Shown piece by piece: positions 794 through 63,187 of a DNA stretch of 64,000 nucleotides (position 1 is its first letter; the number at the start of each line of letters is the position of its first letter). The notes beneath the pieces are model-generated. The model worked only from the letters and a program-made list of their open reading frames with translations, was not told the origin of the DNA and did not search any database. The stretch lies in assembly GCA_039621445.1 (NCBI GenBank), contig CP154954.1:41905572-41969571 (forward strand), written 5' to 3'. The DNA comes from Euglena gracilis (taxonomy: Eukaryota). The position numbers and the translations under genes are program-made.

Positions 794-3700
794 CCCGGCT
801 CCCGTGACGACCAGCTGCGGGCCCTCCTGCGGCGGCGGGCCAGCCCGGACGGGGTGGTCATGCTGACGACGTCCACCATCGGGTACCTGGGGCCAGCCTC
901 CGGCCTGGAAGCGGATGGGCTCTGCAGAATGGAGTCAGCGGAGGATCAACATAAAATTCAGCACACGCCCACATTCACGCATTCATGCGCACACACGCGC
1001 GCACACGCACATACACACACAAACACACACGCGCGCGCACACACACCCATGCACAGACACGTATTACGCACGCACGCACGCACACGGACGCCCATGCGTG
1101 CGCACACACAGATAACCATGATGTGAGTTGTCATCCCTAGATTCAAGGTTGGGAACGATGTCCCTGCAGTGTCCATGTCCACATCACGGCAGAGTTATCA
1201 AATTGGATTTCATTTTCTTATTTGCCCATTTCTGTCACCCTTTCAGCGCCATTAGCCCTATCAGCACTATCACCCTGTGTGTTTAATTCCCTTTTAACCC
1301 CCAGAACAACGGGAAGAGAATCCATGGCACCAGCATCGCCTCCACGTTAGGTTTGATACGACCAATGACGTGTTTATTTTGAGACTTTTGTTGATTTTGT
1401 TGTCCTTCTCCGCCATCTTTTTCTTCGCGACTTGTCCCCCCCAGAAGCGTCTTTGAAAAAGCTTGTGCAGTTGTTGGCTTATGTTGTTCACCACACAGGC
1501 TTCTTTCGGATTTCCTCTGGCTTCAGTGTACAAGCAGGGCAGATGGATGTCACAGCAGATGACGTAAGAATGCGAAAACAATTTTTGGCAAAATTGATTT
1601 TTTCTTGTATTTCCCCTTGTCTGGTGACTTTTTCCCTCGCTTTCATTTTTTTTTCAATAGTTTTTCATTTCACTTGCACAATGTTGCATTTATCCCAGTC
1701 TTTCACAATTCCCTCCAAAATGTTCAATTTCCCACAATTCCCTGCAGTTTTTTGAAATTTCCGAAATTTTTTGGAAGATTTCTATAAGTTCTCCCAATAA
1801 ACGGCCATTTTTTAATACTTTCCTCACATTTTGTGTGTGTTTTTTTTGTCCGCTTCCTTAGCGCGATTATGTGGGTCCAAACATGCCCAAACTCACATCC
1901 AACCAATTGTGCCTGTGTTTTGAGGGCTCACCCACACCCCAAATGGAGCGGCAACAGCCACCAATCAGCCAGAGCGGAAGTTGGGAGGTTGTAAACCCCC
2001 CCTCCCTGATAGAAGCGTGGGTGCGCTGATGGCGGACTGCTACCTCTGGCGGCGGGGGCGGCGCTTCTATTTTGACCCTCCCTGCCCAATTTTTGTTGAT
2101 TTCCTTCAAAAATCCTGTCAAATGGGGGGTGTGCTTGTAGTGGACCGCCGCCTTCGACGACGGGGGGGGGGGGTGCGCTTTTATTTGGACCCTGCGCTTC
2201 TAGCGGCCCCGCATTTTTATTAGGGGGGCGGGTTTACCGGCAGACCTGCACCACAGACAGATGGGTATTTAAACGAATACCTGAGTGCCGTGCCATGTTG
2301 AATGTGATGGGCCGGCATTTTCCTCTCCTGGGGGGTGGGCCGAGAGGGGCAGGGGGTTGTGGCCATTTCGTGTTAAATTTTGCCTGCAACCTGGAGAAGC
2401 TCCAGCTGCCTCACTACGTCATCGCTGCACTGGATGCCCCAGCCGGGCCTTCTCAAAGGAGACGGATGGGACTGGGGACTTTGGGGGGGGTGGGATTTGG
2501 CGTGGGGGGTTTGCCCCCAATTTTTTTCAGCATTGGACTGTTTCTGACCCTCCTGGGGCCGACCAGGCTGTTTTTTTAGTCGCGTGCCGATCCCACCCCG
2601 GGGGGGGGGGGGCCTGCCTGGGCAGGCACCCCAAGGCACTCCGGACCCCCCCTCCCCCCGGGGTTGGTAAAAAACAGCCTGGTGCCGACCCCCCTCTCCT
2701 TATAAATCTGCTGGGTGGGATGTCCCCAGAAGTCCAGCTTCTTCCGTACACAGGAACCCTCCATATACCACAGCAGGACGGAATGGAGGAGCGCGGGTGG
2801 TAAATGTTTTTTTTTGTGAATGCATTCGCACATGTTGTCCATTTTTTCCCGACTACTTTACCCAGTTGGGGCACAGGCTGGACCAAAAAATTTCCAGCGC
2901 AAAGGGCTGAAAATTTTTTTTGATAATTTTTTTCTGGAAAAAAGAATTTTGGAAAAAGGGTCTAAAAAATGGCAAAACAAAAGCCTCAGATTTCCCCAAA
3001 TTTTTGGCTGAAGAATCTAAACCCAGCTGCATTTCGTTTTTTTTTGCCCCTTTTCGGGTGCCAGCCAGGCCCGACTGCAGCTGGCTGGACCTCTCACGCA
3101 CGGGGGGGGGTCCAGCCACCAACTGTTTCCCCCATCCAGCCAGCTGGACCCCTCAGGCTGTCAGGGAGGGGCCCTCCAGGAACTCCCAGGTATTCCCCCC
3201 CACATTCCCCCGCTGGAGCCCCCCCCCCCCCCCACATTGCCCAACGCGCCGGAGCAGCCCCGCCCGCCCGATGTACGAGGCCGGCGCGGCGCTGCCCGCG
3301 CCCGTGGCCCCAGCGCCACGCCGCTCCGGCGCCGCTCCGGCGCGCCCTCGCCTCTGTGCCGCCTGCGCGCGGCCTCGGCGGCTCGCGTCGCCTGCCCCCG
3401 CGCCGGGTCACGGCTTCGTCCCCCCCGCCCTGCCCGGGGTCGGTCCGCCCCCCCCCCCTGGCTCAGGCAATGTCACCTCTGTGCCCCCAATTTGTCATCC
3501 CCGCAATTGCACCCCACCCCCCCTGCCCACCCCCCTTTGTCACCCCCGGGATTGTCCCCCCTCCGTGCTGATTTTTCATAGAAGACGAGTTGTTCTGGTG
3601 TCAGTGTTGATGCCAATTTGTCATAGAAGATGTCTTCTTTCAGTGTGAACTCGGTTGTGCAATACGAATGGAGTGATGGATCATATGCTGCTGGAAGAGT

Positions 3701-60900: not shown

Positions 60901-63187
60901 TTTGTTTGGATGCATTTTTGCTTCCAAACATTTTTGCTTTATACCAATTTTCGGCTGCTTTTGGCTATTTTTGCACATTTGTGGCCATTTTAGCCACTTC
61001 TATTGCTTTTATCCACTTCTTGCCCCTTTTTGGCCACTTTTGGCCATTTTGTGGTCACTTGCACAGATTCAGTGACTGCAATTTTGTAATCGATGGGCGC
61101 TTTTGCATGCATTTTTCTCTCATTCAGTCATTTTTAGTTGTACCTGATTCTTGTCGCGCGGTGCCACGGCTCATGCGGTGCCGCACGGTGCACACGGTGC
61201 CGCACGCGATGCGAAACACGCGGTGCATGCGGTGCAGAAGCATCCCCCTTGGGGCGAAGCGGGAGAAGAAAATGTTGACCCCGGTCTTGTCTAACGACCA
61301 CCCCCGCCCGGTCAGTAGCGATATTTGGACAAATTAGCGACCCCCCCCCCCGGTCAGTAGCGATATTCAGCAGTCGTTGGACAGGCGGGGGGGGTACTAT
61401 GCTGTTTGGGATTCCTGAAGGGCCCACTGTCTGAGAAGGGGAATGTGCGCTCTACAGAGCAGAATAATATTTTGGTTTCCTCTCCACAGGTGGCATTTTT
61501 CTTATTTTTCTTTACACAGTGACCAATTTTTGGCTTCACCCCCAGTCCAAAGGACTTTTGTCCGCACAGAACAGTACCACGACCGACAGGGTCGGCGTTT
61601 TGGCCATCGGACGGACACTCAAATCACCCGCTTGCAGACCGCCCGCGTCACACTGTCGTGGTTTGGGAAGTCTGGACTGAGGCATCGCTCTACTCCCTGT
61701 CTCTCTCTCTTGTCCGTTGAAGTGGGCGTAGGGACAAAGTCCGCGGATTGGGGGGGTGCTGGGCTGACCTGCTCCGCAGGAGGAGCGTCCCCCCCTCCCC
61801 CTTGTCAGGAGGACCACGACTGCCCCCGGCTGCGGGAGGAGCAGCAGCGGAGGGCCCGGCGGCCAGGGCGGGCCGGGGACGCCCGGCAACGCTACAGGTG
61901 GGCGGGGGGTCCCCCTCCCGTCCCACGGTTGGGGTCTGGTTGGTGCTGCCTCCCCCTCCCCGCCTCCGGGGTCTTCCCGGACCGCCCTGCCGGAGGCTGC
62001 AGGCCCAGGCCAAGAAGGAGGCGGTAGAGCCGGCGGGGCGAGTTGGCCTGCTGGGCAGGCACCGACAGTTGACCAGCCCCGACCGTTGCCGACTACCCAG
62101 AGAATGGCAACTGGAAAAAGTGACAAATTAATACGGATATATAGCGTAGTAATGACAATGATAATGATCCAACAAGAATTATAAAATAATAGCAATAGCA
62201 ATGGCAAAGATAACAATGATATCAGTAATAATCAGAATAAATAACACCTGCAACTCGGAAGGCCGGCAAGTGCTATGAATGTCTATGGATGCTTCACCTC
62301 CAGCAAAAACAGCTAAAATTGGCCAAACATGGCCAACTCCATCAAGAATACATGCTCAAAAATGCACGAAAATTGCCACACTGACCCAAAATAACCCTGA
62401 GAAAAATTGAAGTGTGTTGTGTGGTCATGGTATATGATTATTATCACTGTATTATATTGTTTTCCATTCCCGTGCCCCCCCCCCCCGACAATTGACGTCC
62501 CCGGGCAATTGACGCCCCCAGGCAATTGACGCCCCCGGGCAATTGTCACCCCTGGCTGTGCCAGCCAATTTGTCACCCCAGGAAATTTTCGCCCCCTTCC
62601 GTGCTGCCCAATTTGTCACCCCCATTTGCAGTATTGCTCTGTGAACTTTCTTTTCGCCGCATGACTCGATTGATCTTCTACTTCGCTGCAACGCGCTGAG
62701 AATTTTCGCATACCAAACGCTCTGCACAATATCACGACCATAGATTATTTTTCCTGCATTCACTTGTGTTTCAGATGGTGTTCTTGGTCATTTAGTTCAA
62801 ATGTGGCTGACATTGGTGGGCAATTGACGCCCCCGGGCAATTAACGCCCCCGGGTAATTGTCATCCCTCTCTCTCTGTGCCGGCCAAATTGTCACCCCGG
62901 GAATTTGTCACCCCCCTCCGTGCTGCCCAATTTGTCGCGCGACAATTGCCCCGGGGGGGGGGGGGCGGGTATGACTTATTTTTATTTTATTTTTATTTCT
63001 ATGACTTATTTTTTATTTTCTTTTACTGGCATGCACCCTAACTGCAGCCAAGTATTTGCCGGCCAGGGCCGACCACGCCGACCAGAGCACCAAAATGACA
63101 AGTGACCGTTGGTGCCTGCTGCTGGGGGCCCAGCGGTTCGCCAACACCCCGCAGACTGCCATCGGCTCCACCAGCGTGGCCTCCGAG
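57908..63187 (+). CDS. AN1-type zinc-finger protein (ZFAND2/AIRAP- or ZFAND1/Cuz1-like), 3'-partial
   Basis: Exons 57908-58009, 58306-58394, 59910-59958, 60118-60261, 61809-61897, 61996-62052, 63124-63187 join in frame: GKPCHCC..DLPFTCHKCGESLCEDHRLFASHNC, VPECPLCGQLVP..DPNHAVSVHMEKGC, CAFRDC..LIRCKACGNSFCVPHRLQEDHDC. No stop found; the last modelled exon ends at a GT donor. Confidence 0.88.
58395..59909 (+). other. Nonconventional intron (GG...GC)
   Basis: AGGGGCGGATA/TATTCGCTCCT 11-bp stem at +5/-7 (same register); flanks CCCACGGC and CCTGCGGC (6/8); removal gives LVPT|AHNQDPN. Confidence 0.78.
60461..61396. mobile_element. TA-flanked element containing an (AAAATGGCCG)n tract
   Basis: TACCTCCCCCCCCTTGT ... 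ACAGGCGGGGGGGGTA ends; internal TGTCCAACGACC motifs. Confidence 0.62.
62053..63123 (+). other. Nonconventional intron with perfect 8-bp flanking duplication CTGCTGGG
   Basis: CTGCTGGG at 62048-62055 and 63119-63126; inverted ends CAGGCACCGACAGT/ACCGTTGGTGCCTG; removal gives RVGLL|GAQRFAN. Confidence 0.85.
62465..62973. mobile_element. MITE (family of 26153-26648) nested in intron 62053-63123
   Basis: Collinear with 26153-26648 over its full length. Confidence 0.85.

Follow-up and report, generated by a model that had tools for sequence, protein, structure and literature searches.

Inverted repeats and split 8-bp duplications at nonconventional introns in a 64-kb stretch of the Euglena gracilis genome

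This study concerns nonconventional introns in a 64-kb stretch of Euglena gracilis DNA (assembly GCA_039621445.1, contig CP154954.1, positions 41,905,572 to 41,969,571; hereafter the window, with coordinates counted from its first base). It addresses two open questions, namely the origin of euglenid nonconventional introns and the asymmetric spacing of their splice sites, 3 and 5 nt from the stem. As described in PMC12501133 and PMC3935182, such introns lack GT-AG borders and have ends joined by a stem, with CAG 3 nt in and CTG ending 5 nt before the end. A purine opens the next exon and frequent direct repeats make the junctions slidable, and all of these features are seen in the RNA-defined introns reported here. 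Milanowski 2014 (PMC3935182) proposed an origin from MITE-like elements (MITE: miniature inverted-repeat transposable element) and noted direct repeats at the junctions. Milanowski 2016 (PMC4770533) described a recently gained intron in the gapC gene of E. agilis, lacking in other strains, with eight-nucleotide direct repeats, and a 2024 review (PMC11282704) terms the direct repeats 'TSD-like', TSD standing for target-site duplication. Using knock-ins, Nomura 2025 (PMC12501133) defined the code N3-CDG/CH'G-N5-6|R, reported direct repeats at 84.4% of introns, set 'slidable' introns aside and repeated the MITE idea. The spacers of 3 and 5 nt, the 'TSD-like' repeats, the descent from MITEs and the case of one recent intron with an 8-nt repeat have each been published already. 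The parts of these papers that deal with the repeats treat them as a nuisance or as 'TSD-like', however, and do not equate 3+5 with an 8-bp duplication; no published statement of that equation was found in a search that many subscription papers lay beyond.

The introners of Micromonas, dinoflagellates and tunicates are a second close parallel. In the account given in PMC11282704, they are non-autonomous elements with terminal inverted repeats (TIRs) that are inserted in exons and removed from the RNA, with the target duplication forming part of what is taken out or kept, whereby the mRNA is restored. Classic introners, as portrayed there, are spliceosomal, with GT/AG coming from the element or the duplication, whereas the introns described here follow a stem-measured code of non-spliceosomal type. 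Further, classic introners occur as many near-identical copies, but the intron ends described here have no second copy in 64 kb. Near-identical copies forming introns in different genes, the mark of introners, were not found in the window, which is too small a sample to exclude them.

Based on the evidence below, we think it likely that a young subset of the nonconventional introns consists of insertions of non-autonomous DNA transposons with a split 8-bp duplication, and that the element and one copy of the duplication are spliced out. The anatomy itself, an inverted repeat with a split 8-bp duplication, is well supported in this young subset. As an explanation of the nonconventional consensus in general, beyond these 64 kb, it is plausible.

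Verified introns and their flanks

RNA evidence covered positions 44001-64000 and comprised one raw RNA run and two RNA-like contig sets, with a DNA-like contig set (X1) for comparison; joints were taken from 15 listed joints of 379. Four nonconventional introns were verified, three in an AN1-type zinc-finger gene by RNA and one in a WD40 gene by an ortholog.

58395-59909, plus strand: intron of the AN1 zinc-finger gene; element 58398-59904, 1507 nt; flanks CCCACGGC / CCTGCGGC, 6/8
61861-61994, plus strand: intron of the AN1 gene; element 61864-61989, 126 nt; flanks CCGGCGGC / CCGGAGGC, 7/8
62053-63123, plus strand: intron of the AN1 gene; element 62056-63118, 1063 nt; TIR CAGGCACC in both arms; repeat CTGCTGGG, 8/8
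14563-15168, plus strand: intron 1 of the WD40 gene; element 14566-15163, 598 nt; stem CTGGGCATTGCC / CTGGCCTTTGCC; repeat GCTGGGAC, 8/8

The first joint (58393 to 59909, skip of 1515 nt, ambiguity 4) is carried by 32 raw RNA reads and two RNA contigs, the second (61860 to 61995, skip of 134 nt, ambiguity 3) by 14 reads and one contig, and the third (62047 to 63119, skip of 1071 nt, ambiguity 8) by 17 reads and two contigs. None of the three is present in the DNA-like run X1. When the skips are set against the element lengths of 1507, 126 and 1063 nt, what is removed is always the element plus 8 nt. The transcript-proven borders are not GT/GC-AG, since the joint ends read CG..TG, GG..GA and CT..TG, and all three introns begin GG when set in the register of the code. 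As for the WD40 intron, both genomic pieces recovered by tblastn encode AGT, and the orthologous protein P0001 reads ..AAGT|YDG.. free of gaps, crossing the site with a single AGT.

Three of the four introns (61861-61994, 62053-63123 and 14563-15168) fit N3-CDG...CH'G-N5(-6) followed by a purine, with the stem, in full. In 61861-61994, for example, a perfect 8-bp stem (CAGGGCGG / CCGCCCTG) is accompanied by N3 = GGC and N5 = CCGGA, and the next exon begins with G. Intron 58395-59909 differs from the published code in that it closes CAG...CTT, its outermost pair being a C-U mismatch, although its spacing is otherwise identical. Its stem (CAGGGGCGGATA.. / ..CGCTCCTT) includes three G-U pairs, which match C-to-T substitutions on the 3' arm. 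This closure places it outside the published CDG/CH'G code, and it is nonetheless spliced. Nested sequences were found in two introns, a high-copy repeat in the interior of 62053-63123 and a MITE in 14563-15168.

A preliminary description of the window, made from the sequence alone, had listed five coordinate pairs at which the 8 nt on either side of a stem were wholly or partly identical. All five are present as written. Two match at 8/8 (14558/15164, repeat GCTGGGAC; 62048/63119, repeat CTGCTGGG) and three at 6/8 (4722/8729, 54384/55256 and 58390/59905). In both perfect pairs the repeat measures exactly 8 nt and is flush with the inverted repeat at either end, and the bases beyond it differ. 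Transcripts bore out two of the three pairs within the RNA-covered part, 58390/59905 and 62048/63119; the third, 54384/55256, was absent among the 15 joints listed, and coverage by raw reads was close to nil there. The pair 14558/15164 was confirmed as an intron by the single AGT in P0001, and intron 61861-61994, with its 7/8 flanks, lies outside the five. The remaining two pairs correspond to candidate introns, the first of which holds two MITEs.

4727-8733, plus strand: candidate intron proposed in the preliminary description; element 4730-8728; flanks GCCCAGCG / GCCCAGTC, 6/8; frame-consistent only
54389-55260, plus strand: predicted candidate intron proposed in the preliminary description; element 54392-55255; flanks ACCCCGCA / GCCCCGGA, 6/8

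That splicing removes the element with one copy of the duplication had also been claimed. This held for all four verified introns (removed length equal to the element plus 8 nt, flanks 6-8/8) and several other probable nonconventional introns, with junctions placed by hand, show no repeat.

Donor and acceptor windows spanning -5..+3 matched at 6, 7, 8 and 8 positions in the verified nonconventional introns (4/4), and at 3-4/8 in 9/9 GT-AG introns, where the matches are attributable to the AG|G consensus. Across the three RNA-defined introns, 21/24 flank positions are identical. Anchored on the stem at n=8, the four verified and the two unverified introns gave 6, 7, 8, 8, 6 and 6 matches; off-register, the same six gave 2-3/7 at n=7 and 2-4/9 at n=9. 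Flank identity in these six introns peaks in the 8-nt register only, where a peak had been expected.

Scans of inverted-repeat pairs were also run, without intron annotation. One of them, restricted to arms starting CAG, CTG or CGG with at least 10/12 positions matching (CDG scan; 945 pairs, 511 scored at shift 0), found five pairs with 8/8 flanks at shift 0 versus one in all 12 control shifts together. An any-start scan of 20,623 pairs found 10 with 8/8 flanks at shift 0; 16 control shifts yielded 0-5 perfect matches (mean 1.25) and 10 Markov-1 simulations yielded 0 each. Exact repeats abutting an inverted repeat numbered 7 at n=8 versus 0.23 expected, with 0 at n=9, 0 at n=11-13 and 1 at n=10, the last being an alias of an 8. 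The flank-identity signal exceeds chance, and the perfect and near-perfect matches of the scans are three of the introns and eight non-coding elements. A generic scan for perfect 8-bp inverted repeats was rejected, as its 6,788 pairs within 6 kb were swamped by chance and showed no excess at 6/8 or better. Reversed sequence was unusable as a control because reversal preserves inverted and direct repeats alike.

MITE-like elements and their superfamily

The eight non-coding elements, obtained from unbiased scans, are new here; no publication on CAG-ended MITE families with 8-bp TSDs in Euglena was found, again with many subscription papers beyond the search. They measure 111-1704 bp, have TIRs starting CAG or CAA and are flanked by 8-bp duplications, six of them perfect and two 7/8 (no strand assigned).

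2564-2681: MITE-like element, 118 bp; TIR CAGGCTGTTTTT; TSD GGGCCGAC / GTGCCGAC, 7/8
6043-6379: MITE-like element, 337 bp; TIR CAGACGTTCATTTA / CAGGCTTTCATTTA; TSD GTGCTGGC, 8/8
8076-8371: MITE-like element, 296 bp; TIR CAGGCTGTTTTTTT / CAGGCTGGTATTTA; TSD CTCCGGAA, 8/8
9587-10390: element, 804 bp; TIR CAAGCACCTAT; TSD GTCTGCAC, 8/8
14765-14875: MITE-like element, 111 bp; TIR CAGACCTCCATTTA / CAGACCGCCATTTA; TSD CTGGGAGC, 8/8; nested in intron 14563-15168
19733-20199: MITE-like element, 467 bp; TIR CAGGCTTCTGCTGC / CAGGCTTTTGCTTA; TSD CCCCCAGT / CCCTCAGT, 7/8; within one of the GT-AG introns in the WD40 gene
25765-26037: MITE-like element, 273 bp; perfect 14-nt TIR; TSD 8/8
50316-52019: element of tandem repeats, 1704 bp; TIR CAAGCACCTCTG; TSD CTGGTGGG, 8/8; within a GT-AG intron of the alpha-kinase gene

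The elements of the window are short, non-coding and multi-copy and have both TIRs and TSDs, as MITEs do. Two families have two copies each in the window. Elements 2564-2681 and 8076-8371 form a family with 88% identity at both ends and different flanks, and 9587-10390 and 50316-52019 have common CAAGCACCT ends. The ends CAGAC..CATTTAGTG are common to 6043-6379 and 14765-14875, and CAGGCTT to 19733-20199 and 25765-26037. Their settings are nonconventional introns, GT-AG introns or sequence beyond the modelled exons, and mostly they lie in other introns. Thirteen RNA reads from other copies leave the window sequence exactly at 50316, the first TIR base, and X1 depth over 50316-52019 is several thousand times that of unique bins. 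A third copy of the CAAGCACC family, the fragment 60522-60655, was rejected; its 5' end is degenerate and a duplication is absent. A 26-nt core of MITE family 1 gave 0 matches in a metagenome scan, and the 8-mer CARGCACC is not enriched in the window (11 copies versus 9.4 expected).

Assignment of these elements to the hAT superfamily is our best guess. TIR positions 1-3 read CAG or CAA in 8/8 elements, and position 5 is C in 8/8 (CAGGC, CAGAC, CAAGC). TIRs opening with CAG or CAA, when joined to a duplication of exactly 8 bp, classically point to hAT, and the hAT TIR consensus is (C/T)A(A/G)NG, with G at position 5. The 8-bp TSD characteristic of hAT elements is seen in all eight, and the spectrum of repeat lengths has its sole peak at 8. 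The resemblance to hAT MITEs extends to the size range of 111-1704 bp, short TIRs, a non-coding interior and nesting in introns, whereas the C in place of G as fifth TIR base and the absence of a hAT transposase among the 20 open reading frames (ORFs) scanned set them apart, and the 14 duplications reveal no clear target preference. These ORFs (ten beside the introns of the preliminary description and the ten longest) gave 0/20 matches to Pfam, and hence no transposase domain, a blank that is consistent with short exons.

That the elements belong to some other group of 8-bp-duplication transposons, whether Merlin-like, P-like, Mutator-like or undescribed, is a serious possibility, though one we lean against; the anatomy would stand in either case. 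The uniform C at TIR position 5 favors such a group, as do the blank Pfam scan and the lack of any report of hAT in Euglena in the literature searched, but the CAG/CAA start combined with exactly 8 bp speaks for hAT. Merlin families with 8-bp target duplications are reported in E. gracilis itself (PMC8101967), so that a euglenid genome is known to hold transposons with this trait. The Merlin elements described in that source have TIRs that start GG and a DDE_Tnp_IS1595 transposase, however, and neither is seen here, with 0/8 elements starting GG.

Other repeats were observed alongside these elements. A repeat of ~500 bp, flanked by poly-C/poly-G and assembled from units that contain CAATTG, occurs at 26155-26647 and 62475-62973, and also at 3726-3942. 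Its copies are 88% identical, one is nested in intron 62053-63123, and many length variants are present in the DNA-like run. At 44293-44634 lies a 342-bp element of a different family, with perfect inverted ends running through the palindromic TCCGGA (~22 bp) and flanks matching 5/8 in the 8-nt register. Summed k-mer depth in X1 reaches at least 10^5 in bins 44668-45334, 50004-52004 and 60009-63343, versus 30-250 in unique bins, indicating that parts of the introns there are very high-copy repeats.

Proposed origin and points that weigh against it

We propose that insertion created these introns. On inserting, elements whose TIRs start with CAG (or CTG) and end with the complement would copy 8 bp of the target, and their inverted repeats would pair into a stem within the pre-mRNA. 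The nonconventional machinery would then cut 3 nt upstream and 5 nt downstream of this stem. The removed RNA would comprise the element and 8 nt, precisely one of the two duplicate copies, and the reading frame would be as it was before the insertion. By virtue of its CAG...CTG ends, a MITE-like element in an exon would present N3-CAG...CTG-N5, as the published splicing code requires, in either orientation, and excision of 3 nt, the element and 5 nt would leave one intact target copy. The 3+5 spacing and the 8-bp duplication might have become matched by co-evolution, or perhaps only such exon insertions survive. Older nonconventional introns may have lost the repeat through drift, since, position by position, one copy or the other is intronic and free to change; introns without a repeat would be expected on that view.

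A wider claim, which we advance tentatively and hold at just under even, is that nonconventional splicing is transposon excision at the level of RNA, its 3-nt and 5-nt cuts being matched to the 8-bp duplication of a superfamily with CAG-ended TIRs. If this is true, new exon insertions would be removed seamlessly and be phenotypically silent, and their orientation would be irrelevant because CAG...CTG is identical on both strands. The dominance of such introns in euglenid genomes would be explained, and decay of the split duplication would be a clock for intron age, turning the nuisance of the 'slidable junction' into a dating signal. If 3+5 is one split 8-bp duplication, the asymmetry would also find a simple explanation in history. 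A quantitative genome-wide test of the MITE hypothesis would open up on ~466,000 annotated nonconventional introns of E. agilis, and a second route from transposon to harmless intron, independent of spliceosomal introners, would come into view.

Several observations weigh against an origin by insertion. In the any-start scan, flanks of at least 7/8 showed no excess (23 versus 10-21 in control shifts), nor did flanks of at least 6/8 (112 versus 88-125 in controls), so the signal rests on about a dozen elements. Further, of the 10 perfect matches in that scan, the one at 24249 is a microsatellite artefact and that at 6342 is doubtful, and the control shift of -2 alone accounts for five perfect matches, uninspected. 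Two of the five introns in the preliminary description (4722/8729 and 54384/55256) are still candidates. Four to six further probable nonconventional introns, placed by hand, have flanks matching 0-4/8 or uncertain junctions. Among them are alpha-kinase introns b (4/8), c (0/8) and d (3/8) and WD40 introns I5 (2/8) and I12 (3/8, possibly conventional), which show no repeat or no 3+5 register. The hand-placed junctions (alpha-kinase a-d; WD40 I5, I6 and I12) were derived from 65-75% homologs and incomplete contigs and are uncertain. The exon ends implied for alpha-kinase introns a-d (46190-48740) match neither GT-AG nor the 3+5 stem register; either the model lacks some small exons or the four introns depart from the code.

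The introns themselves also lack support as members of MITE families. It had been expected that intron ends would cluster with MITE TIRs, and this was not borne out: in a BLAST search of six intron sequences against the 64-kb window no terminus had a second copy, and only nested interior repeats matched elsewhere. Synthetic introns with arbitrary spacers splice, as reported in PMC12501133; the repeat is therefore dispensable for splicing, and the link claimed is purely historical. In addition, a 3' spacer of 6 nt is tolerated, and removal would then extend to the element plus 9.

Part of this evidence is shared by an explanation without transposition, in which the 8-nt repeats are scars of staggered double-strand-break repair and the inverted ends serve only RNA folding. 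Break repair was proposed in Milanowski 2016 (PMC4770533) for the intron with eight-nucleotide repeats, and the lack of any repeated intron terminus in the window agrees with it. We nevertheless regard it as unlikely, because an inverted repeat abutting an 8-bp repeat is also found in eight elements that are not exonic, including two two-copy families with different flanks, a geometry such as would be left by a transposase with a fixed 8-bp stagger. Scars would also be expected to vary in length, but here the length is sharply 8, and repeats of 9 and 11-13 are absent. Chance, or selection in the preliminary description of stems that happened to lie beside repeats, is a highly improbable source of the flank identity: the examples were indeed chosen, inverted repeats are abundant (the 6,788 perfect 8-bp pairs within 6 kb) and looser thresholds show no excess, but RNA fixed the junctions independently, one intron beyond the five matches at 7/8, the 21/24 matching positions in three RNA-defined introns compare with ~3-4/8 in GT-AG controls, and the shift and simulation controls speak against it.

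Gene models and further observations

The window has ~55% G+C and zero N and is rich in microsatellites. Rfam and tRNA scans of it gave no match, and exon prediction from GC3 and codon usage was too noisy for gene models. Three partial models were obtained from RNA or homologous proteins.

57.87-63.19 kb, plus strand: AN1-type zinc-finger gene; RNA-based partial model
14.5-24.9 kb, plus strand: WD40 gene; partial model from the 75%-identical protein P0001
~45-54 kb, plus strand: alpha-kinase gene; partial model from P0002, Pfam PF02816

RNA for the AN1 gene shows two GT-AG joints besides the three nonconventional ones, among the joints listed, and a third GT-AG intron was deduced from a loose end in the RNA. 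An intron of the WD40 gene carries long tetranucleotide arrays, (ATAG)n and (ATAC)n, together with (AC)n and (ACAAC)n, at 21920-22900 and 24000-24460. Two ORF segments on the plus strand, 28075-28266 and 29614-29784, resemble WW domains (..LPPGWE.. and ..LPPGWVYG..) and hint at another gene at ~27-34 kb. Lastly, the RNA departs from the window at several single bases within 57916-58330 (e.g., at 57919, 57957, 57961 and 58330) and at 63167; since the DNA-like run has them too, they look like strain variation and not RNA editing.

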